From positions 42,501 to 106,500 of the forward strand of contig JAYFRF010000006.1 in assembly GCA_034926225.1 (NCBI GenBank): DNA of 64,000 bases, in the 5' to 3' direction. Both the position numbers and the translations under genes were made by a program. This document shows, in pieces, positions 5,104 through 61,879 of this stretch. Origin of the DNA: Clostridiaceae bacterium (GTDB lineage: Bacteria; Bacillota; Clostridia; Oscillospirales; QAMX01). Within the stretch, counting starts at the first letter, position 1; each line of letters begins with the position of its first letter. Under the pieces are notes generated by a model. That model saw nothing but the letters and a program-made list of their open reading frames with translations, did not search any database and was not told the origin of the DNA.

Positions 5104-7151
5104 TTGGAAGCTCCTTTCGCGAACGTAGTATGGCGGATCAGACCGTCGAACAAGGTCAAAAGCCCCGGCAGGACGAGGAACACCATGGCCGCCGATAAGA
5201 CGGTACCGCGTCCGAGAAGCGCGCCGAGCTGGCTGACGACCTCGTTTGAGGAAACAGCGCGGATGATGAAGCCCGCCGACGCGAGGATCGCCGCCGACGT
5301 CAGGATGGACGGCAGCGTCTCCGCAAGCGCCCGGGTCGCAGCTTTTAGCTTTGGAAGCTCGTTCCGCGCCGCGCGGTAGTGATCGGTATAAAGAATTGCG
5401 TAGTCTACGGTCGCGCCGAGCTGGACGGTACTGATGATCAGGTAGCCGATGTAACAGAGGATGCTCCCGGAGAAATAAGTGACGGAGAGGTTCACCCAGA
5501 TCGACGCTTCGATCGTTAAAACGAGCAGCACGGGCAGCGAGACGGAGCGGAAGGTCAAGAGCAGCACGAGGGCGATGGCCGCGATGGCGATCCAGTTGAC
5601 GCGTACGGCGTCGGAGGTGACGACGTCACGCATATCGTATAGGTTCGCGCTTTCGCCAAAGGTATACGCGCCCTCGGGATAGACCTCGCGGACGCTGTCG
5701 CGGACGGCTTCGACGACGGAGAACGCGAGGTCACCATCGGCGGGGGTATCGGCGTAGAGGATGATGCGGGCATAATTGTCCGAGTAAAAATGCGAAAGCG
5801 CGTCGTCACTGACGAAATCGGGCGGAATCGCCGCACCGACGGTATGCGCATAGGACACGACTGAGGTAACGTGATCGATGTCGGCTAGCTTTGCGGAGAG
5901 GATCGCTTCCCGGGCGACGTCGCCGCGCGGCACGAGGACAACGGTCGCGGCGGAGCGTCCGAAAGCCTCGGTCACAGCGGCCTCATCCATACCGGCGACG
6001 GTCGCGGGCTCCAGCTCGCCCATGCCATAGGTGAAGGTATTGTTCATCTGGGCGAGGTACGCGGGGACGATCAGCAGAAGGACAAGCGCGAGCGCCGGAA
6101 TGCGGCATTTCATCAGAACTCGGGAAGCACCGTCAAAGCGCGGCAAAAAGGAGCGATGGCTTGTACGGTCTAAAAGCTTCGCGCAGGCAAGCGTCAGCGC
6201 GGGGAGAAAGACCATGACGGAGACGAGGCTGAATGTCACGCCCTTGGCGAGGTTGATGCCGAGATCCGCACCGATGCCGAAGCGCATGAAGACGAGCGCG
6301 AGAAAGCCGAAGATCGTCGTCAGCGCGCTTGCGGAGACGGCGGGGAAGGCGCGCTTCATGGCAAGCTTCATCGCCCGCTCGAGCGACGGGGTGCGTTCAC
6401 GCTCCTCGCGGAAGGCGGCAAGGAGGAAGATCGCATAATCGAGAGAAACCGCGAGCTGTAAAAGCGGCGCGACGGATGAGGTCATAAAGGAAATCTCGCC
6501 GAAGATGATATTGAGCCCCATGTTAATGACGATGGACACGCCGATGGACACTAAAAACAACAGCGGTTCCAGCCAGGAGCGGGTTGTGAGCGCAAGCAAC
6601 AGCAGGATCAAGGGGACGAGGAACGCGGCGGCCTTGAGCGTTTCGGCGAGGGCCAGCTCCTGCGTGACGGCGGTATGGACGGCGTCTCCTGAGATCGCGC
6701 CGGTGTCCCCGATGAGGTCGCGGATGGCGTCTACAGCGCTGCGTTCATGGCCTGCGGCGATGGCGACGGAGAGGCAGGCGCTGCCATCCTTATAATAGGT
6801 TTCGACGGTCGCGGCATCCGCCGTATCGAGCGGCACGCGCAGGTCGAGCACGTCGTCGAGCCAGAGAACCTCCTCCACGCCGTCGATGGTGGAGAGCCGT
6901 TCCTTGATCTCGAGCGCCTGTGTCACGGAGACGCCGCGCAGCAGTACACGGGCGTTGGGCAGCGCGCCGGGGAACTCCGCCTGCATCCGCTCGAAGCCTA
7001 CAGTGGACTCCACGTCGTCGGGGAGATAATCTGTGAGGGTGTAGTTGACGCGCACGCCCGTCCAGAGGACGCAGGAAAGCACCGTCAGCACGGCGAAGAT
7101 GAGAATCACGGCCTTTTTACGGCGCAGGATCGCGCCGAATAGTCTGTCCAA
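5100..7151 (-). CDS. MMPL/RND family transporter
   Basis: Two repeats of TM bundles with LAVSLDYAIF and LGATVDYAIL motifs; TTG start with GGAGG RBS. Confidence 0.9.
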   Translation of the reverse strand: MDRLFGAILRRKKAVILIFAVLTVLSCVLWTGVRVNYTLTDYLPDDVESTVGFERMQAEFPGALPNARVLLRGVSVTQALEIKERLSTIDGVEEVLWLDDVLDLRVPLDTADAATVETYYKDGSACLSVAIAAGHERSAVDAIRDLIGDTGAISGDAVHTAVTQELALAETLKAAAFLVPLILLLLALTTRSWLEPLLFLVSIGVSIVINMGLNIIFGEISFMTSSVAPLLQLAVSLDYAIFLLAAFREERERTPSLERAMKLAMKRAFPAVSASALTTIFGFLALVFMRFGIGADLGINLAKGVTFSLVSVMVFLPALTLACAKLLDRTSHRSFLPRFDGASRVLMKCRIPALALVLLLIVPAYLAQMNNTFTYGMGELEPATVAGMDEAAVTEAFGRSAATVVLVPRGDVAREAILSAKLADIDHVTSVVSYAHTVGAAIPPDFVSDDALSHFYSDNYARIILYADTPADGDLAFSVVEAVRDSVREVYPEGAYTFGESANLYDMRDVVTSDAVRVNWIAIAAIALVLLLTFRSVSLPVLLVLTIEASIWVNLSVTYFSGSILCYIGYLIISTVQLGATVDYAILYTDHYRAARNELPKLKAATRALAETLPSILTSAAILASAGFIIRAVSSNEVVSQLGALLGRGTVLSAAMVFLVLPGLLTLFDGLIRHTTFAKGASK

Positions 7152-21877: not shown

Positions 21878-21902
21878 CCGCTTTCCCCGTAGGAAAGTAT
21901 TG

Positions 21903-21939
21903 AAAGACCGCGTATACGATGAGTATGCGCGGTCTTTTT
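21903..21939 (+). terminator. Terminator after tRNA-Asp/Thr
   Basis: AAAGACCGCGTATAC...GTATGCGCGGTCTTTTT. Confidence 0.8.
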
Positions 21940-21989
21940 GGTTTATTTTGTTCCATTATTATAAGCCAGTCTTTTGAGAATAACACACT

Positions 21990-22130
21990 TACCCGTTTTT
22001 TTGTTTCCGGCAGTATTATATCGTCGACCCGATCGGCGGTCATTTCCAGGTTACCCTCCATTTCATGGTTGTAAGTACCATAGCTGTCCATATCCACCGT
22101 GTGGCCAATCAATGGCTTCAGGTCGTGTAA
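21990..22130 (-). pseudogene. Tyrosine integrase C-terminal remnant
   Basis: LKPLIGHTVDMDSYGTYNHE resembles the xGH...Y box II; points toward tRNA-Thr 3' end. Confidence 0.6.
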
Positions 22131-22266
22131 TATAGATGCATCAAGACACGGGCGGTGCGTTAAGAAGAAGGACGGGAACATGAGCCGGCGCTGATAAAGA
22201 AGCCTTGATAATTTTACGGAGTATGCTATAATATAAAAATAATTGACAGGTTGAGAGGACTTCTTA

Positions 22267-23748
22267 ATGGATGTTTCGTTAAATGGAGCGGAAGCAATAT
22301 TTCGCACGTCTTTTTCTCAGAACTATGATCTTTTACAGATATTTCACGGCCTAAAAAATGGGTATCTCGGTGCTAATAATCCGGTGGATTTCCGAGCGGC
22401 GGGACTGCAAAAAAAAGGCTGCCGCGATATCTGGCATATGGATGTCGTACTGGCGTTTTCGACAGACGAGGTATCGCCCCAGGTAATAGGCGGCGTTGAT
22501 ATCGGCGGGAATCATTCGCAGGATTGCGCGGTACGGGTATGGGTACCCGGTCATGCTATGGATACGGGGGATATTGGTTCACTTTGGCGGGATGAGAGCG
22601 GTATCTATTGGACATGCCTTCGAATAGAAAACCGGGAAAGTATGCTTTTTGTATCAGAAAACATCGGCGCATCCAAGGAAGACTATGCTTTTGCACAAAA
22701 AATCGAAGGCAGCCTTACTTACATCAGTGATGGAAATCATGTTATGGAGATTATGCCGGTAAAGCAAACGGGTTGCGTGTCAATGCATCGTTCCATCCGG
22801 CATACAAAGCGGGAGCTTTCCTGCTGGAAGGACGGACAGCGTCAGAATATTATCGGTTATCATACCGATGTTTCCTTTGCGAAGATCACGGAGGAATATG
22901 AAATTATCAATCCCGCGACGGTAGGAGAGACGCTGCGAAAAAACCGTCCGTTAGGCGGGTATCGTACGGAGCAGGATTTGGCGATCGGAGAAGCGATGTT
23001 CCACTTTTGCGCGGTTTATAGCATTGCGGACGATGGGACGGTGTTGGTGGATTTTGATCACCAGCGGATGCAGAACGTCCGCTGGGAATCATATTTAGGC
23101 GTGATGTATCAGGAAAAGTGCGATGTGTATGGCGGAGGTATCTGGCGGTATATTCCCAAAACGCGGCCTTTTATCGATCACGGTACGACCTATGACTTTT
23201 CCCATCCGCATAATACGTCAGAGGAACCGTTCCCTAAAAAGTTCCGGATTACACCGGAATATTGGGCGGATCCGGATAATCCGCCCGACCGGCAGATCGA
23301 TTTTATTCGTAAGCCTGAGTCGGAGGAAGCATTCGCGTTTGTCGGGGGGTACCTGCCATTATATGATGGGGCACCTGTACGCCGGAAAGCAAATATAACG
23401 GATGCGGTATGTCTGGTTGACTCGAGGAAAACGTATCCGGCATTTATCGGCGGTTCCGTTATAGATGCGGCAACAAGGAGCGGCCCAACATTTACAAAAG
23501 CGCATGGCGTCGCATATCGGAAATATTATCCTTCGGGCACACGCTTTTCCGCTTATACGGTGGACTACGACGGCATCACCTACCTGTACGTAGATCTGTT
23601 CGAGCAGTGCAGTGCAGAGATCCCGATTTTAAACGGCTGTCGCGCGGAGATACGGGAGATCAGCGCCACGCTCACATGGGAACAGCATGGAGAGACTTTG
23701 ACAATTACCGGACAGAAGGGATATGCGGTTTTTACGATCAAGTCATAA
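22267..23748 (+). CDS. Hypothetical protein (493 aa, beta-rich), island cargo
   Basis: Long ORF with GAGG RBS; AT-richer than core. Confidence 0.8.
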   Translation: MDVSLNGAEAIFRTSFSQNYDLLQIFHGLKNGYLGANNPVDFRAAGLQKKGCRDIWHMDVVLAFSTDEVSPQVIGGVDIGGNHSQDCAVRVWVPGHAMDTGDIGSLWRDESGIYWTCLRIENRESMLFVSENIGASKEDYAFAQKIEGSLTYISDGNHVMEIMPVKQTGCVSMHRSIRHTKRELSCWKDGQRQNIIGYHTDVSFAKITEEYEIINPATVGETLRKNRPLGGYRTEQDLAIGEAMFHFCAVYSIADDGTVLVDFDHQRMQNVRWESYLGVMYQEKCDVYGGGIWRYIPKTRPFIDHGTTYDFSHPHNTSEEPFPKKFRITPEYWADPDNPPDRQIDFIRKPESEEAFAFVGGYLPLYDGAPVRRKANITDAVCLVDSRKTYPAFIGGSVIDAATRSGPTFTKAHGVAYRKYYPSGTRFSAYTVDYDGITYLYVDLFEQCSAEIPILNGCRAEIREISATLTWEQHGETLTITGQKGYAVFTIKS

Positions 23749-23776
23749 AAGGGAACGCAGATCCCGTGGTGTGCAT

Positions 23777-23796
23777 ATTTATCAGAGGTTCCCTAA
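23777..23796. mobile_element. Solo IS5-type terminal inverted repeat
   Basis: ATTTATCAGAGGTTCC + CTAA, matching the ends of the element at 33920-34096. Confidence 0.55.
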
Positions 23797-24264
23797 TCGG
23801 AAAAAGTCCGGAAGACTTTTGCGGTATTCTGTGCTATACTGGTATCGTGAAAAAACTGAAAGCTGGTGAGCGTCGACATCCCATCGGATTTGAAACCAAT
23901 GCGGAATATGCCGACGCAGCCGAAAAACGCATACTGTCAGCTCATGAAAGCCTTGCCGAGTGATCGGCGGGGCTTTTATTATAGGGTAAAGCTCAAAAAA
24001 AAGCAAAGGAGCGAGAAATAATCCCCCGCTCACTTTGCTTGTGCTCAAATAAAGAGCTTATTATACACTACTGCGTATTGTCTTCTCTTCAGAACACATA
24101 TCTATTATGACCGTTGTACCGCTCTTTATGCATCATTGTGTTAATACATTATTTGGCGGGGCTTGATTATACTCGTAGAAAGAAGGTGGCAGCTTGATTA
24201 AACTTAAGGGAAAACAAAAATAGTTTGTCGAAGTATATTTAATTGATTTAAACGCAAAACCACC

Positions 24265-25191
24265 CTATGACAACGCCTTTCTCAACGGTTCACAAAAGCA
24301 GTCAGTGTCTATGTTATATTTGATCAAAAAGCTTCTGCAGACGCATTCCCACAAGCTGTCGGGAATGTCGCCACAATCTATACCATGCTCCCTTTTTACA
24401 TCTTTCGCATGTTTGAAAAGTAAATGGAGGAACTCCGACCCTGCCTTTTGTCCGGGATATGTTTGCATTGTCAACACAAGCGCCATCCAAAAAGCCGTGT
24501 CGAAGCAGTCGCACATACCGCTTTTAGCAAGCGTGTTTAAAAGCAGCTTGCCTTGATAGGGCACGCTTATGTGTCTGACGTCGATACTGCCGTTATCCTC
24601 TGTGAGCAAGGCGTAATCAGCGACGAACGCGCCGGACGCGTTGACGCCAACAGAACCGGGATTGATGAACAGCTTCTGTCCGAAGGACACGCAGCTTGGA
24701 AAATGGACATGTCCGCAGACATAAATATCCTGAGGTATCGCCCTCATAGTCTCCGCTACTGTCTCACGGTTTATATCCGGATGAAAACAGCGATATTGGT
24801 TCGACGGTGAATGGTGACTCGCAAGCAGTGTGAACTGTCCTATTTTTAGTTCGATCTCGCTTGGTAATAATTGCAGATACCCAATTTCAGAAACGGAAAG
24901 GTGTTCATAAACATGTCGGAGCGCCGCAAATTGTCTCAAGTGCAGGCTACCTTTGATCTCTTCATATGTTACCGCCATGTTATCCCGGTTTCCGGCCACA
25001 ACATTGTGCGTAAGCTTTTCGGTACGTTTGATAACTTCCGTGCTTTGCGGCCAATCGGAGATCAAGTCGCCGCAAATCACATAATCACTCGCGCCGCGCG
25101 CAGCGGCATCATCAACCACCGCTTCGAACGCCGTATCATTGCCGTGTATATCGGCAAGCAGCGCGATCCTTCGACAGCTATTATTTATCAT
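24265..25191 (-). CDS. Metallophosphoesterase (YfcE/calcineurin-like)
   Basis: DIHGN, GDL, GNRD, GHVH, INPGSVG. Confidence 0.9.
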   Translation of the reverse strand: MINNSCRRIALLADIHGNDTAFEAVVDDAAARGASDYVICGDLISDWPQSTEVIKRTEKLTHNVVAGNRDNMAVTYEEIKGSLHLRQFAALRHVYEHLSVSEIGYLQLLPSEIELKIGQFTLLASHHSPSNQYRCFHPDINRETVAETMRAIPQDIYVCGHVHFPSCVSFGQKLFINPGSVGVNASGAFVADYALLTEDNGSIDVRHISVPYQGKLLLNTLAKSGMCDCFDTAFWMALVLTMQTYPGQKAGSEFLHLLFKHAKDVKREHGIDCGDIPDSLWECVCRSFLIKYNIDTDCFCEPLRKALS

Positions 25192-25702
25192 GCAACACTC
25201 CCTATAGTGATAAAAATTTAAAATCAGGAGATGGTTCAGTTGAATCGATCTATCTTTGACTCTATTATGATTCGAGCTGTTTAGTAAAATAATTAACGGG
25301 AAAAGGTTAAGCTGATAAACTGCATTTCCCTTTGGACAATTAAATACCAGCTTATAATAGGCAGGGTTCTTCGATTGAGCCCCTGCCTATTAACTTATAT
25401 CACCTATCACAAAGCTCAAAGAACCTTTTACCCTAATATTACCATCGGCTTTAACTAATATCAACAAAAATAAGAACTGAGAGACGACGCCGACGGCTGC
25501 ATAAACATGCCGCATGAGGTGGCAAGAGGGAACGTAGTCAACCGCAGGGTGAGGGCGGTACAAGGGCATTGGGATCCCGCTTTATGCTGCCCTTTGTCCC
25601 ATTGCCTTCACAAAAAAACTGTGTTATAATACATGAGTCTGTTGCAGCGCTTAAAGCTTTGACCCACTCAAAATACAAAATCTAATAAAGGGTGGTTTCA
25701 AT

Positions 25703-26686
25703 ATGTCTATAAAATTGATTTCCCAAATCCCAGTGCGCCAGCTTATCTATAACATGCAGGGACAAAACTACTGGTTTAACGGCTGTATGGAATTTCTAAT
25801 GGAATGCTTGGGAGAAGATAAAGCTTATGACTATTGGTTTTTTTCCGGTGTTACAGGCGATAGTTTTATACAGATGTACAGTAAAAATCCGGAAAATATG
25901 GTTCTATGCTATTCTCACAACATGACCGACCTAGTACTTAAAAAAGCGTTTGACGCATGTGGATATAATTATAATTACTACAAAGACATCAATAACGATA
26001 ATCGAGAAGCCCTTGACCAGCGAATACGCAAATATATCGACCATAACACCCCGGTAATTGCGCGCGTAAATGATGCATTTCATTCTCTTGCTATCATCTG
26101 CGGTTATGATAATAACGATTTTTACTATATTTTGGGCGAGGAAAAAGAACCAAAACCTTATCGCTATGATGAGCTTATTTTTGTCACAGATAAAAAATCA
26201 AAACCATTATTAGCAGATGTGTACAGAAAGGCGGTCATGGATATACCATCGTATATATCGATGATAGAAACAAAGGATTATTCATTTGGGAAAAAAGCGT
26301 TTATGGATTGGGCGGAAAGCTTTCAAAATGGTATGTTCGATGCAATTTCTTCCGATAGTAAGATTTGGTATACGCATGCCAACCTTTATTTTTCTTGCTG
26401 GAATATGCATGGAACCTATCTTTGTATACTTGGTACCAACGGTTGTGCCGAAGGGTTTTTGCATGATGCTTTAGCAAAAAATCCTGACATGACGTTTATC
26501 AATGAATTGATTCCTTTATACATAACACAAAATAGAAACGGTTTTGATATTCTTATCCAGATGGAAAGTGGATTTAATATTAAACCTGAAGTTATTAAAA
26601 ACAAAAATCGAATGAGACCTATAAGCAATAAAATAATGGAGTTATCAAGATATTGCGACGAGATTCTTACTGTTTTTAAAAATTAG
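25703..26686 (+). CDS. Hypothetical protein, possible papain/C39-like (BtrH-N-like) fold
   Basis: AT-rich ORF; NGC near N-terminus and HSLAIICGYD motif. Confidence 0.7.
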   Translation: MSIKLISQIPVRQLIYNMQGQNYWFNGCMEFLMECLGEDKAYDYWFFSGVTGDSFIQMYSKNPENMVLCYSHNMTDLVLKKAFDACGYNYNYYKDINNDNREALDQRIRKYIDHNTPVIARVNDAFHSLAIICGYDNNDFYYILGEEKEPKPYRYDELIFVTDKKSKPLLADVYRKAVMDIPSYISMIETKDYSFGKKAFMDWAESFQNGMFDAISSDSKIWYTHANLYFSCWNMHGTYLCILGTNGCAEGFLHDALAKNPDMTFINELIPLYITQNRNGFDILIQMESGFNIKPEVIKNKNRMRPISNKIMELSRYCDEILTVFKN

Positions 26687-26726
26687 ATACCCACGCAGTA
26701 TAAGCTTAATCTTAGATGCGGCGGAG

Positions 26727-26768
26727 AAAAACAAAGGACGGCCTTGCCAAAGCAAAGCTGTCCTTTGT
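26727..26768 (-). terminator. Terminator (likely bidirectional)
   Basis: ACAAAGGACGGCCTTGC / GCAAAGCTGTCCTTTGT with T-run on minus strand. Confidence 0.75.
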
Positions 26769-26803
26769 CGATCACACGTTTATGTCTGCGTGAGGTCTGT
26801 CTC

Positions 26804-26884
26804 TTAGTAACAGAGACCGAAGTAATTGCACAGAAGCTGCCACATGGAAGAACAATTAAAGTTACTCAGTTTGAAGTTACACAT
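26804..26884 (-). CDS. Small Cys-rich peptide, 26 aa (MCNFKLSNFNCSSMWQLLCNYFGLCY)
   Basis: GGAGG RBS 8 nt before ATG, own SigA-like promoter and terminator. Confidence 0.7.
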   Translation of the reverse strand: MCNFKLSNFNCSSMWQLLCNYFGLCY

Positions 26885-26944
26885 TTCATTAGCCTCCATT
26901 ATAAAGTGTTTAGGATTGTTGTTCCGTCTCTCGAGGACAATTGA

Positions 26945-26984
26945 AGTATAGCACTTTTGTAACCACTTTGCAATGGTAATGTAA
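26945..26984 (-). promoter_or_regulatory. SigA promoter overlapped by three WalR/OmpR-like half sites
   Basis: TTGCAA-17-TATACT on minus strand; TGTAA/TGCAA/TGTAA at 26958, 26969, 26980 on plus (11-bp period). Confidence 0.65.
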
Positions 26985-27240
26985 GGATTACTTGATCTTA
27001 ACATTGAATTGGCCTGTTTTTGAAACTTTTTTACAGGTAATGAATGGATATGCTTATATAAGGTGAATTGCTGCGTATACGGCTAGCGGTATGCATCGGC
27101 GGAGGTCGTTCGTTTTGCCGGGATCCGCGCCGCGCTCGGTGGCGAATCCGGACGCTCGGACGCAGGTAAAAAGCGCCTGCTCATTAACATAGCAGGCGCT
27201 TTTATAGCTTACTTCTCCACTCCAGGGAAGCGGCTCGTAT

Positions 27241-27642: not shown

Positions 27643-27777
27643 GTTTTTCAGGCGTGAATAACAGCGAAACTATCCAAACGGGCGCGGGTTTTTACGTCAT
27701 TTTTGCGTAAAGATGGCGCTTGACTTTTTGGAGGAATCGGGGTATACTACATATATAATTGAATATCATTTAAAATG

Positions 27778-28075
27778 GCGATGAGAAAGAAGAGTACGCC
27801 CGACAGGGCACCGCATGACAGAGAGCTTCCGGCAGCTGAAAAGGAAGCATGGTGCAGCTGTAGGCGCGGAACATGGTCTTTTGAGCCGCGCACCGACCGC
27901 CGCGAATCCGTCGCGGCACAGGCTGCGACGCACGCGCTCCGTCAAAGGCGCAGGGTATGGATTCGTACCTGATAAGGCTGTTTTCCGCGTGAGCGGACGG
28001 CGAACTGGGGTGGTACCACGGGCTGCGCGCTCGTCCCCGAAATGTAAAGTTTCGGCGGCGAGGGTGTTTTTTTAT
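27778..28075 (+). promoter_or_regulatory. T-box riboswitch, Met specifier (ATG at 27873)
   Basis: GCGATGA, AGTA loop E, AGAGAG and GCTGAAA motifs, GAACATG specifier, AACTGGGGTGGTACCACG T-box, terminator with T-run; promoter TTGACT-17-TATACT at 27720/27743. Confidence 0.93.
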
Positions 28076-28121
28076 TGTCCGAGCACCCGCGACCCCGCCA
28101 GTTTAAAAGAGGGATTTGACC

Positions 28122-28646
28122 ATGACACATATCTTCTATAACGGCACCTACTCCGCCTCCGACGCAAAGCTCCGCTACCGCCGCATGGCAGGTAAGTCCG
28201 CTGCCGACATCCGGACGCCGCCGACGCAGGACGCGCGGTGTATCGGGGATGAATTTTTACGCTTTTACGGCCGGACGATGGATCTGGCGCTTCGCTATAC
28301 GGGCGGACGCGTACCGGCGGGGGTGCTGGATGGCGCGTTTGCGATGAAGATCGCGGGGCTGTTCGCGCCGGTCGGCCGCGCCATAGACGAGAGCCGCATG
28401 AGCGACGCGCTGGACACGCTGGAGGCACATGCGCAGGCGGCGAATCTGTGGCTGGACACCGCGCTGAAGAAGCCGGAGCCGTATGTGCAAACGATTTACA
28501 ACGCCGTGCAGGTAGCCGTGAACCTCGCGCTCCTATACGAGCCGTTTCTGCCGCGAACCGCCGAGCGGCTGCGCGAGCGGCTGGGCTTTTCCACCTCATG
28601 GCAGTTCTCCTCCATCCCTGCCGGAACGATCCTGGTCACAAAATAG
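28122..28646 (+). CDS. Internally deleted MetRS2 derivative: stand-alone anticodon-binding helical domain (no HIGH/KMSKS)
   Basis: RT...YTGGRVPAG..D, TIYNAVQ..NLALLYEPFLP..AERLR..LG match the MetRS C-terminal bundle; DAKLRYRRMAG resembles the N-terminal DxxARY motif; under a Met T-box. Confidence 0.8.
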   Translation: MTHIFYNGTYSASDAKLRYRRMAGKSAADIRTPPTQDARCIGDEFLRFYGRTMDLALRYTGGRVPAGVLDGAFAMKIAGLFAPVGRAIDESRMSDALDTLEAHAQAANLWLDTALKKPEPYVQTIYNAVQVAVNLALLYEPFLPRTAERLRERLGFSTSWQFSSIPAGTILVTK

Positions 28647-28795: not shown

Positions 28796-29503
28796 ATGGT
28801 ACTGGATTTTCCGCGGATGCTCTCTCTTTTACGTCAGGAGAAAGGCGTCAGCCAGCGAGAAGCGGCGACCTCTCTGAGCGTATCGCAGGCATTGCTGTCC
28901 CATTACGAAAAGGGTTCGCGGGAGCCGGGCTATGCCTTTCTGATCCGTGCAGCGGGCTACTACGGCGTATCGACGGACTACCTTTTAGGCCGTACGATGC
29001 AACGGGGGTCCTCGCCAAACGATGCCGCCAAGGCCGCGGCAGCCGACGGGGAAGATCGTGATAAGACGGGACAGCAGATGGAGACGCTGCGGGAGACATA
29101 CGCGCTCCTCTGCGCGCTTTTCACCCGGGCTGGCGCATCCCGCTTCACCGACGCCGCCGCGCAGTATATGGCCGTCTCCGCCTACAAGGTCATGCGCTAC
29201 GCCTTCCTCGCCAACGGGAAATCCGCGCAGGAGCTGTTCGCGGCCTCCGGCACGACGTTTTCCGAGCTGTCGGACATGCAGATCAAGCGTGCGGAGGCAA
29301 CCTTGCGTGAGTATGCCGAAGCCGCCGCCCACAGCCGCCACGAGCCCTCCGACGCCCCCGTGCCCGCCATCAGCCGCGATACCCTCTCCCATGAATACGC
29401 CCCCCTTGCCGATTCCGTCTTAACCCTTCTTCACGCCGTCGACGAGCAGCTGCTGGAGGCCGCTCTTGGAAGCACCGCGAAAAAAAGCGAAAAAAGCTCT
29501 TGA
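28796..29503 (+). CDS. XRE-family HTH transcriptional regulator
   Basis: LRQEKGVSQREAA...SQALLSHYEKGSREP...YYGVSTDYLLGR. Confidence 0.92.
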   Translation: MVLDFPRMLSLLRQEKGVSQREAATSLSVSQALLSHYEKGSREPGYAFLIRAAGYYGVSTDYLLGRTMQRGSSPNDAAKAAAADGEDRDKTGQQMETLRETYALLCALFTRAGASRFTDAAAQYMAVSAYKVMRYAFLANGKSAQELFAASGTTFSELSDMQIKRAEATLREYAEAAAHSRHEPSDAPVPAISRDTLSHEYAPLADSVLTLLHAVDEQLLEAALGSTAKKSEKSS

Positions 29504-51191: not shown

Positions 51192-51366
51192 ACGCGGCCT
51201 TTGCCCCTTTCTTCCTTATAGGTTTAGTATACCACCCTCCTATCTGATTGTCAACGCGCCGCGACTCGTTTTTGCACATATTGTACCATTTTAGTGTCCC
51301 CGCTGTCTCTCAGATTCGGTCGAATATGTGTTGACATTCCCCTGTTTTTCGGGTATAATCAATATT

Positions 51367-51510
51367 GCCATAAAGAGTGCGTGAGAGACAAGCTCGTTGA
51401 CCGCACAGCAACCTGGCCGTTTTATAAAAAGCGGAAAAGGTGCTAAAGCTTGACCGATGGGGAAATACCGGAAGTATGGACGCACCCATCACGAATGGGC
51501 GCGTTTTTTA
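51367..51510 (+). promoter_or_regulatory. SAM-I (S-box) riboswitch lacking P4, with terminator
   Basis: CCATAAAGAG...CAGCAACC...AAGGTGCTAAAGCTTG...ATGG; promoter TTGACA-17-TATAAT (51331/51354); terminator ACGCACCCAT...ATGGGCGCGTTTTTT; upstream of metK. Confidence 0.85.
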
Positions 51511-59926: not shown

Positions 59927-61879
59927 TTAGTGAATGGAGGAGCCTGCCGGGATGCCGTCGGCGAAGATTACACGCACATCGTTATCGCCGGCGTCGGCCG
60001 CGAGGAGCATCCCCTGACTCTCGACACCGCGCAGCACGGCGGGCTTGAGGTTTGCGACGATGATAACCGAGTGTCCGATGAGGTCTTCGGGCTTGTACCA
60101 CGGCGCGATGCCGGAGACGATCGTGCGGCCGACCTCTCCGTCGTCGAGCGTCAGCTTTAAGAGCTTTTTCGCTTTCGGCACCGGTTCGCAGGCGAGAATC
60201 TTCGCAACGCGCAGGGAGACCTTGGCAAAGTCCGCGATATCGATCATCGCGACGCCTTCGGGCTTTTCCGTTTCCGGCGCTTTCTTTTCCGGTTCCTTCT
60301 TTTCATTCTCGGCGGCATGGACCGCTGCGACTTGCTCGGCGAGCGCCTTCTCATCAATGCGGGCGAAGAGCGTTTCGGCGGTGCCGAGCGTCGTGCCGGC
60401 TTCCAGCGCGCCCCATGCGAGGGTTTCGATGCCCGCTTCGGGGAGGTTATACTGCGCGCGGATGCGCGCCGCGGTATCCGGCAGGAAGGGCGCGAGCAGC
60501 GCCGCGGCAAAACGGATGGACTCGATTAGGTTATAAATCACTGTCGCGAGCCTCGGACGGCTGTCCTCGGACTTCGCGAGCGTCCAGGGCGTCGTCTCGT
60601 CGATATATTTGTTCGTGCGGCGCAGGAGCGTCCAGATATCGTCGATGGCATCCGCGACATGGAGGGTTTTCATATCCTCGACGGCGTCGGCAAGGGCTTT
60701 TTCTGCGACAGCGCGCAGCTCGTCGTCGAGCGGGGCGCCTTCACCCGGCGCGGGGACGATGCTGTCGAAGTATTTAAGTGTCATGGCGTGAGTGCGGGAG
60801 ACGAGGTTGCCTAAAATATTCGCGAGGTCGCCGTTGTACCGGGTCATAATCTGCTCGTAGGTGAAGCTGCCGTCGGAGGCAAATGGCATCTCGCGCAGCA
60901 TGTAGTAGCGCGTTGCGTCGACGCCGAAAAGCTTCACAACCTGCTCGGCGTAAACGACGTTGCCCTTCGACTTTGACATTTTATCCTCGCCGAAAAGCAT
61001 CCACGGATGACCGAAAACCTGTTTCGGCAGCTCAACGCCGAGAGCCATCAGCATGATCGGCCAGTAGATCGTGTGGAAGCGGAGGATATCCTTGCCGATG
61101 AGATGGACGTTCGCGGGCCAGTACTTATTAAACAGCTCGCCCGAGTTGCCGTCGGGGTCATAGCCGAGGGCGGTGATATAGTTCGACAGCGCGTCGATCC
61201 AGACATAGATGACGTGTTTAGAGTCAAAGCTGACGGGGATACCCCAGTCAAAGGAGGTGCGGGAAACGCATAAATCCTGAAGCCCCGGGCGGATGAAGTT
61301 ATTGAGCATCTCGTTTTTGCGGCTTTCGGGTTGGATGAAGTCGGGATTGTCGAGGATATACTGTTCAAGGGCGGGGGCATATTTAGACATCTTAAAGAAG
61401 TAAGCCTCCTCCGACGCGCGTTCGACCTTCGCGCCGCAGTCGGGGCAGCAACCGTCCTTAAGCTGTGTTTCGGTGAAGAAGCTTTCGCAGGGCTTGCAGT
61501 AGTAGCCCTCGTAGGAGCCTTGATAGATATCGCCCTGATCGTAGAGCTTTTTAAAGATTTTCTGCACGATTTCCATATGGGAAGAGTTAGTCGTGCGGAT
61601 GAACTGGTCATACGAGACGTTCATAAAGTCCCAGATGCGGCGGATCTCTCCCGCGACGGCGTCGACATGCGCTTGAGGGGTCTGGCCTTCCGCTTTCGCC
61701 TGATCCTGAATCTTCTGGCCGTGCTCGTCGGTGCCGGTCAGGAAGTAGACGTCGAACCCTTGAGCGCGGCGGAAGCGGGCGATGGCGTCGGCAAGGACGG
61801 CTTCGTAGGTATTCCCGATATGAGGCACCTTCGACGTATACACGATAGCGGTGGTTATATAGAACTTTTTGCCGTTCAT
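59927..61879 (-). CDS. metG: Methionine--tRNA ligase (MetRS1 type with C-terminal tRNA-binding OB domain)
   Basis: PHIGN, GTDEHG, CKPC/CPDC knuckle, KMSKS, TPW, ESQGM; promoter TTGCAT-17-TATAAT at 61926-61954. Confidence 0.97.
   Translation of the reverse strand: MNGKKFYITTAIVYTSKVPHIGNTYEAVLADAIARFRRAQGFDVYFLTGTDEHGQKIQDQAKAEGQTPQAHVDAVAGEIRRIWDFMNVSYDQFIRTTNSSHMEIVQKIFKKLYDQGDIYQGSYEGYYCKPCESFFTETQLKDGCCPDCGAKVERASEEAYFFKMSKYAPALEQYILDNPDFIQPESRKNEMLNNFIRPGLQDLCVSRTSFDWGIPVSFDSKHVIYVWIDALSNYITALGYDPDGNSGELFNKYWPANVHLIGKDILRFHTIYWPIMLMALGVELPKQVFGHPWMLFGEDKMSKSKGNVVYAEQVVKLFGVDATRYYMLREMPFASDGSFTYEQIMTRYNGDLANILGNLVSRTHAMTLKYFDSIVPAPGEGAPLDDELRAVAEKALADAVEDMKTLHVADAIDDIWTLLRRTNKYIDETTPWTLAKSEDSRPRLATVIYNLIESIRFAAALLAPFLPDTAARIRAQYNLPEAGIETLAWGALEAGTTLGTAETLFARIDEKALAEQVAAVHAAENEKKEPEKKAPETEKPEGVAMIDIADFAKVSLRVAKILACEPVPKAKKLLKLTLDDGEVGRTIVSGIAPWYKPEDLIGHSVIIVANLKPAVLRGVESQGMLLAADAGDNDVRVIFADGIPAGSSIH

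Follow-up and report, generated by a model that had tools for sequence, protein, structure and literature searches.

A predicted catalytic-null descendant of a T-box-regulated methionyl-tRNA synthetase is under purifying selection in an uncultured genus of Clostridia

T-box riboswitches are understood as switches for genes that secure the supply of charged tRNA, i.e. genes for aminoacyl-tRNA synthetases, biosynthesis and transporters. Textbook cases include second synthetase copies under T-box control, such as thrZ and tyrZ of B. subtilis. Bacteria also possess free-standing proteins derived from synthetases, among them HisZ, YadB/GluQRS, EpmA/PoxA, AlaX, YbaK and Trbp111/CsaA. Here we describe a 174 amino acid (aa) open reading frame (ORF) of a Clostridiaceae bacterium, P0001, which stands behind a methionine (Met) T-box and is related to the anticodon-binding domain of methionyl-tRNA synthetase (MetRS). 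It is located in a stretch of 64,000 nucleotides (assembly GCA_034926225.1, contig JAYFRF010000006.1, positions 42,501 to 106,500), which in the following is called the window. At roughly even odds (a probability of about 0.5) we take P0001 to be a working gene, kept by selection, whose product descends from a second, T-box-regulated MetRS and is catalytically dead. An initial annotation, made from the sequence alone, had proposed that an intact Met T-box drives here a MetRS copy that lost its catalytic parts and was repurposed.

The closest counterparts are T-box-regulated second copies of MetRS that we found in other genera (L035, L036, L039, L040 and L041). They have a homologous Met T-box, its specifier context and the anticodon domain in common with P0001. 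However, they remain enzymes with catalytic motifs (the L036 protein of 529 aa obtains 473 bits against the TIGR00398 cut-off of 336), whereas P0001 is without catalytic parts and obtains 15 bits with the same model. The architecture of P0001, a stub joined to an anticodon domain, is shared by three further proteins, P0126, P0229 and P0094, which have different junctions and of which P0126 (locus L038) is also found behind a Met T-box. The free-standing bacterial proteins listed above resemble P0001 in that pieces or paralogues of synthetases are kept for other jobs. They retain, however, a catalytic-like core, an editing domain or an OB fold, while P0001 consists of a class Ia helical anticodon bundle and a stub of the helix that carries the HIGH motif. 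We know of no free-standing synthetase-derived protein that is composed of a class Ia anticodon bundle and a HIGH stub, and of none that is controlled by a T-box.

A related idea comes from animals. According to a report on human tyrosyl-tRNA synthetase (TyrRS), exon-skipped and internally deleted variants form catalytic nulls (PMC4756856). They are reported to be like P0001 in that the core is ablated internally and an N-terminal piece is joined to the rest, with a product that folds and is presumed to have a non-translational role. These variants are splice isoforms of a working animal gene, whereas P0001 is a separate bacterial gene with a genomic deletion, its own riboswitch and purifying selection. 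Our literature search (full text, supplements outside its scope) returned no truncated synthetase paralogue under riboswitch control and no MetRS anticodon domain that stands alone and has a known role; catalogues of T-boxes, e.g. TBDB, may list such genes uncommented.

P0001 is encoded on the forward strand at 28122-28646, with the stop codon TAG at 28644-28646 and a ribosome-binding site read from the sequence, AAGAGGGA, at 28107-28114, 7 nt ahead of the ATG. The GC content by codon position (0.62/0.49/0.79) is as expected of a coding frame. Four parts can be distinguished, all on the same strand. Residues 2-24 (28125-28193) form an N-terminal stub, which an ungapped profile scan identified as what remains of the HIGH motif with its helix. 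It is followed by a variable linker of residues 25-36 (28194-28229), marked by in-frame insertions and deletions (indels) and low conservation, which replaces about 320 residues. Residues 37-158 (28230-28595) constitute the anticodon-binding-type helical bundle according to profile, fold and conservation. The bundle holds an invariant DAR..G.EFLRFYGR helix, an N-W-L-D motif and the segment YNA.Q...N.A..YEPFLP. The C-terminal tail (28596-28643) carries, in the family alignment, the invariant W-Q-F-S-S-I-P-x-G, which aligns to W-E-F-R-E-L-P-A-G of P. abyssi MetRS.

The uninterrupted frame and the in-frame joining of an N-terminal piece to the anticodon domain had been proposed in the initial annotation, and both stood up. 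The best ungapped match of the stub was the HIGH helix, residues 17-39 (LHIGH...RY.R.KG), in all four paralogues compared (z 5.4-6.2); for L036 and L041, the two paralogues that were shuffled, the observed score was reached in 0 of 300 column shuffles. In P0001 HIGH is replaced by H-I-F-Y. About 320 residues of the paralogues have no counterpart in P0001, namely the remainder of the Rossmann fold, the CP domain including both Cys knuckles, and KMSKS; neither KMSKS nor the Zn (Cys) knuckles were found in P0001, which has a single Cys. The loss of these motifs is thus as first described. P0001 remains far below the cut-offs of the MetRS models, with 33.2 versus 587 bits for PRK00133, 15.1 versus 336 for TIGR00398 and 12.8 versus 598 for PRK12267. 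Judged from its sequence, P0001 lacks every catalytic element and should be unable to aminoacylate tRNA.

The bundle is diverged but traceable. Pfam returned 0 families for P0001 at E ≤ 1, PF19303 (Anticodon_3) and PF08264 (Anticodon_1) included, while residues 44-162 matched the anticodon-binding region of MetRS in NCBIfam PRK00133 (E 2e-8). P. abyssi MetRS in the PDB was matched with phmmer (1rqg, E 7.6e-5), and a further match was to the window's own metG product (E 4e-6, 24% identity). Aligning the family profile with a full-length paralogue using hhalign gave a probability of 98.1% (E 1e-13). An AlphaFold2 model based on a 15-sequence alignment is a helical bundle with a pLDDT of 76.9 and a pTM of 0.74, in which the linker has pLDDT values below 50. 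All 11 Foldseek matches of this model in the PDB at E ≤ 0.001 were MetRS structures (probability 1.00, TMq ~0.6). P0001 is therefore modelled as a helical-bundle fold homologous to the C-terminal domain of MetRS. Trbp111/CsaA models did not match P0001; the same models matched residues 518-649 of the housekeeping MetRS.

To see whether the ORF is maintained we looked for homologues of the same length, as the initial annotation had suggested. A large protein collection contained 15 same-length clusters (164-212 aa, 60-92% identity), none with a Pfam domain; a subclade at 47% identity comes in addition. The alignment of the 15 homologues has 63 invariant columns, and all its indels are in frame and lie mostly in the linker. 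DNA could be recovered for six members: the window, L044 of the same genus (82%), L045 and L046 (74%), and L043 and L047 (47-48%); they represent five distinct lineages, since L043 and L047 differ by a dS of only 0.03. In all six the frame is intact, at dS values up to >1, and a T-box with Met specifier lies directly upstream.

Among the four closer lineages, all six pairwise Nei-Gojobori estimates of dN/dS lay in the range 0.15-0.25 (dS 0.59-0.88). Comparisons with the 47% subclade gave 0.30-0.48, at saturating dS (0.93-1.47). Fisher tests on three pairs gave p values from 1.8e-19 to 3.8e-11. As yardstick we used the housekeeping metG in a single genome pair (window and L034, i.e. G000/G240): there the dN/dS of the short ORF was 0.152, compared to 0.147 for the anticodon domain of metG and 0.114 for metG overall. 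Selection on P0001 is in this pair as strong as on the matching domain of an essential synthetase. Resolved by part, ω was 0.20 for the stub, 0.185 for residues 37-174 (bundle and tail) and 0.505 for the linker. Stub and bundle are each constrained and the linker is relaxed. Purifying selection acts on the short ORF as well as on its riboswitch throughout a clade in which synonymous sites are near saturation.

The leader was scanned locally with the Rfam model RF00230. The match at 27772-28041 of the forward strand, which spans Stem I, the Stem II region, Stem III and the antiterminator with the T-box sequence, covers model positions 1-219 of 219 with 67.4 bits (E 1.6e-14), although this is below the gathering score. 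The T-box had been called complete at first sight, and in its parts it is. The specifier codon AUG (Met) at 27873-27875 lies in the context GAAC-AUG-G, with the purine G27876 followed by the strand UCUUU, which as 3' strand of the closing stem pairs with AAAGA on the 5' side. This stem covaries, being AAAGA/UCUUU in the window versus GGGA/UCCC in L047/L043. Further diagnostic parts of RF00230 are present, namely the AGUA/GAA specifier loop, CAGAGAG (AGAGA bulge) and the purine after the specifier. The T-box sequence is GGGUGGUACCACG in the RF00230 alignment, which also places the UGGU bulge at 28011-28014; the bulge is invariant in the leader alignment A2. In T-boxes this bulge pairs with the NCCA 3' end of the tRNA, and its U would fit a discriminator A73.

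An intrinsic terminator was found by folding at 28025-28073, consisting of a hairpin (28025-28066) and a run of seven U (28067-28073). The hairpin has a folding energy of -25.5 kcal/mol (z -2.96), which was equalled in 1 of 200 shuffles, overlaps the 3' strand of the antiterminator and shows compensatory changes in its stem. The antiterminator was not favoured as minimum-energy fold of the isolated segment (z +1.37), which is expected because this structure needs the tRNA. Over 13 aligned leaders, 25 of the 53 pairs predicted by RNAalifold carry compensatory double changes. Between family members the identity of the leader is 0.77-0.84, and that of 4-fold degenerate sites in the neighbouring ORF 0.51-0.62, i.e. 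the leader is under constraint and more conserved than these sites. In sequence and predicted structure the leader has the parts of a Met-specific, transcription-attenuating (terminator-type) T-box. With a crude specifier pattern it was the only T-box of the window's genome (G000) to show AUG, with three of the nine giving no call. The consensus promoter that had been named as part of the leader holds up only partly: the sigma-70-like site TTGACT-17-TATACT at 27720-27748 (forward strand) has 10 of 12 consensus matches and a fitting position just 5' of the T-box, but with two such sites in the region versus 1.0 expected from shuffles it is weak evidence alone.

A weak hint of expression comes from RNA libraries. 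Contigs from three studies cover the leader only (27688-28021, 27786-27978 and 27843-28009) and all stop before the U-run, as terminated leaders would, while a single contig, from the same study as the source, lies in the 3' part of the ORF (28477-28635). As these runs were available as contigs only, the coverage gap at 28022-28476 carries no information.

For the origin of P0001 the family profile was searched against 401 genomes of the order. Only three genomes, G000, G240 and G318, all of the window's genus, gave family-level matches (E 2.6e-53 or better). Matches of intermediate strength (E 2.4e-10 to 2.5e-19) came from eight genomes of other genera, compared to about 1e-6 for housekeeping MetRS. 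Five of these eight loci, the second copies introduced above, are PRK00133-type MetRS ORFs of about 527-545 aa without C-terminal domain; they retain HIGH, the Zn knuckles, KMSKS, GNFVNR and PW. The remaining three are truncated by the contig end (L042), collapsed to 186 aa (L038, genome G292) or frameshifted (L037, genome G328). A T-box lies upstream at seven of the eight loci, the eighth being L042 with its contig end. The specifier context GAA(C/U)-AUG-G-UC and the following GAGCYGCGYACCGA segment are common to all 13 leaders, six from the short family and seven from paralogues.

In a FastTree phylogeny the short clade joined the clade of T-box paralogues with a support of 0.999, apart from eight housekeeping enzymes, on a stem of 1.25 substitutions per site. 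The tree is based on motif-anchored domain segments of 8 of the 15 family proteins and L043, with P0004 and P0005 cut slightly too long. Protein and riboswitch sequences together identify the parent as a PRK00133-type MetRS paralogue of 527-545 aa with the same Met T-box as preserved in sister genera. Common descent rests in this case on protein and riboswitch and not on synteny: flanking genes shared between the window and the paralogue loci were not found at E ≤ 1e-8, which gives no support to a collapse in situ. An intact T-box paralogue of about 530 aa is absent from the window's genome, and among 2396 candidates there was no longer form of P0001 at E ≤ 0.001, which is weak evidence. At L040 (genome G017) a tetrahydrofolate (THF) riboswitch of 74.4 bits (6112-6205) was observed about 2 kb downstream of the full-length T-box paralogue.

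Collapses of the same paralogue occurred elsewhere. P0126 (L038, 3921-4481) is an in-frame fusion, ...GGAWPYANG|PEKRD..., whose junction lies between two GCMAAYGG microhomologies. A 99% identical copy of this gene is present on a 318-kb contig of another record and the collapse is therefore no assembly slip; its domain is not relaxed (ω 0.13-0.15). P0229 (214 aa, from a Paenibacillus sp. genome) and P0094 (169 aa) follow the same design with other junctions. P0126 and P0229 keep GNFVNR and PW, and P0094 lost the GNFVNR helix to its deletion and keeps PW. All three are still recognised by Pfam; a family of diverged relatives with the same architecture was not seen for them. L037 (3912-5640), behind a T-box of 87 bits, has a single frameshift in the Zn-knuckle region, due either to pseudogenisation or to an assembly error. 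Most other short matches were plain C-terminal fragments starting from an internal Met. As leads only, ESM Atlas clusters of 50-534 members and about 160-240 aa from other phyla, mostly Actinomycetota, are annotated with the MetRS anticodon-binding domain alone, and stand-alone forms of this domain may be widespread.

What the bundle could bind depends on the residues that read the anticodon. In E. coli MetRS, N391, R395 and W461 are reported to read the CAU anticodon and to be strictly conserved (PMC10535265). We mapped them onto P0001 via the E. coli MetRS chain 6spp (offset 21). GNFVNR has become LRFYGR and P-W is absent, as had been proposed against a MetRS2 consensus; structure-sequence mapping and hhalign agree on this. 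The equivalent of N391 is R47, an invariant Arg in the short family, and the position of W461 is deleted. The sole survivor of the triad is R395, which corresponds to R51. The equivalents of N452 and D456, N108 and D112, are retained and invariant in the family; both positions are presumably important in MetRS, which we take from older mutational work. Invariant residues are found at the N452/D456 equivalents and along the helix with the equivalents of N391 and R395.

From these data the following scheme can be proposed. An internal in-frame collapse of the T-box paralogue and a burst of change, for which the long stem branch would speak, may have left a remnant that was then exapted as a binding protein. 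Because the leader has the parts of a Met-specific T-box and the mechanism of T-boxes is established, the ORF should be made when tRNA-Met is uncharged: uncharged tRNA-Met would stabilise the antiterminator such that the ORF is transcribed. By analogy with other T-boxes we regard such an induction as likely. Given the conservation pattern, P0001 would act through the remodelled former anticodon-binding face, at which the invariant residues cluster (DAR..G.EFLRFYGR helix and N-W-L-D). The likeliest ligand would be the anticodon arm of a tRNA (tRNA-Met or, if the specificity has changed, a relative of the CAU type), which would be held but not charged during Met limitation. We name tRNA as ligand tentatively, at less than even odds. 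It is a speculative and rather unlikely extension that the riboswitch-driven remnant binds tRNA-Met, initiator tRNA or a CAU-derived tRNA (e.g. tRNA-Ile2) via its remodelled anticodon site and thereby adjusts the uncharged-tRNA pool, initiation or starvation signalling, with recurrent collapses of this kind, and the ESM Atlas clusters of lone anticodon domains, being a general route from a spare synthetase to a tRNA-binding regulator.

Several observations weigh against P0001 being a functional tRNA-related gene of this kind. The T-box score is below the RF00230 gathering score of 93 and the leader is unlisted by a default Rfam scan; sub-threshold scores are, however, usual in this GC-rich genome, where three of nine T-box matches exceed this value. 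The dN/dS values are Nei-Gojobori (NG86) estimates and as such approximate at this GC content. The RNA-library contigs could be DNA carry-over, and induction cannot be read from contigs. The family is very narrow, with one representative above 1e-30 among 1.84 billion; its range comprises three of the four sampled genomes of one uncultured Clostridia genus and metagenome relatives, the fourth genome (G342, 82% complete) showing housekeeping MetRS only. Samples that resemble the source are environmental. Two of the three anticodon-reading residues are lost, which makes canonical reading of the tRNA-Met anticodon unlikely since only the R395 equivalent remains. Neither basic character nor net charge is conserved across the family (pI 4.8-9.4). 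Finally, as the parent paralogue decays repeatedly elsewhere, the starting event was probably an ordinary loss of a spare synthetase. The unusual part is the retention of this product after the loss.

Repeated decay would also fit an ordinary pseudogene, an in-frame deletion relic of the T-box paralogue that has not acquired a stop yet. The paralogue is frameshifted in G328 and collapsed in frame independently in G292 (P0126), in Paenibacillus (P0229) and in P0094, about one third of large deletions are in frame by chance, and the domain of P0001 escapes Pfam. A decaying gene is, however, at odds with dN/dS values of 0.15-0.25 (p down to 1.8e-19) that equal those of the housekeeping anticodon domain, with six intact DNA-level members from five lineages, in-frame indels and 63 invariant columns, and with a stub that is constrained separately. 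A full MetRS2 in close relatives, or frameshifted debris with dN/dS near 1, which the initial annotation had named as the mark of an ordinary pseudogene, was not found within the family; in more distant genera there are a full paralogue, one frameshifted copy and in-frame collapses. The pseudogene reading is largely refuted and we consider it very improbable. Selection could instead keep the T-box RNA or read-through, as a tRNA-Met sensor for the downstream helix-turn-helix (HTH) or tRNA genes or as a tRNA sponge, with the ORF as translated spacer. The leader is indeed constrained and dominates the RNA-library contigs, and the next gene after the ORF encodes an HTH_3 protein in the window, L044 and the distant L043/L047, with no terminator found in between in the window. 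Yet constraint at the amino-acid level with invariant motifs is not expected of a spacer, L046 retains T-box and ORF without the HTH gene, and an extended -10-like site of its own, TGGTATAAT, precedes the HTH gene. That the RNA alone is kept, the alternative that had been raised at the outset, is insufficient because the amino-acid sequence is constrained alongside the leader; we hold it to be quite improbable.

A non-catalytic product may on the other hand bind protein and no RNA: the former interdomain surfaces (stub, tail and bundle face) would contact the housekeeping MetRS, a translation factor or the HTH protein and relay a Met-starvation signal. This would accommodate the missing conserved positive charge, the loss of two anticodon-reading residues and the strong conservation of stub and tail without a catalytic role, and new protein interfaces are reported for human TyrRS variants with internal deletions (PMC4756856). 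However, there is no indication of a partner, the gene neighbourhood is not kept beyond the genus, a third MetRS-like paralogue does not co-occur with the short ORF, and conservation is highest in the helix that in MetRS faces the anticodon. A protein-binding regulator is an unlikely alternative. That P0001 is a functional protein in whatever role is very likely, and it is probably a repurposed protein rather than a dead gene, in line with the initial proposal, given the same-length homologues, the T-box in six of six loci and the low dN/dS.

If P0001 is the catalytically dead descendant of a second MetRS, the sole identifiable AUG-specifier T-box of the genome would drive a protein that is unable to charge tRNA. 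The locus would then provide a testable case of a redundant synthetase copy converted into something else, and its regulation, with production in response to uncharged tRNA-Met, indicates in which direction to look for its function. It would furthermore extend the idea of synthetase catalytic nulls, which so far comes from animal splice variants, to bacteria. For annotation it is a warning that a short fragment labelled 'class I tRNA ligase family protein' is not necessarily junk if an intact riboswitch precedes it.

The housekeeping metG, which had correctly been recognised as a full gene without T-box, is located at 59927-61879 on the reverse strand. It encodes 650 aa of the PRK12267 type (895.8 bits) with a C-terminal tRNA-binding domain, and the genome scan showed no T-box near it at E ≤ 0.001. 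Elsewhere in the genome (C5:76417-78330; L053 1459-3375) there is a third, divergent MetRS-like gene of 638 aa, with HHVG in place of HIGH and 238 bits on PRK00133 versus a cut-off of 587. Co-occurrence of the short ORF with this paralogue was considered and rejected, as it is present in 2 of 35 family genomes (G000 and, with 66% identity, G115) and in none of the three other genomes of the genus.

Immediately after the short ORF, at 28796-29503, the window encodes an XRE-type HTH_3 protein of 235 aa. The gene is kept after the short ORF in L044 (68%) and L043/L047 (44%) and is absent in L046; the TGGTATAAT site in front of it was read from the sequence. Upstream, in the region 21880-27200, about 4.3 kb between a tRNA-Thr and a DUF1540 gene are without counterpart in the sister genome (L044), which looks like an insertion or deletion difference. 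The segment contains two ORFs without Pfam match (22267-23748 and 25703-26686) and a metallophosphoesterase gene (24265-25191). Some T-boxes of this genome precede non-synthetase genes: L005 with a GAA-UGG-A context ahead of a 468-aa ORF, L003 ahead of an ORF beginning MKIAFSTLGCPDFDW, and L009 ahead of an ORF of at least 474 aa; the specifier calls for these three come from the crude pattern and are unreliable. An S-adenosylmethionine (SAM) riboswitch (RF00162, 54.2 bits) is found at 51365-51482 on the forward strand of the window, which means that S-box control is likewise used for methionine-related genes here.

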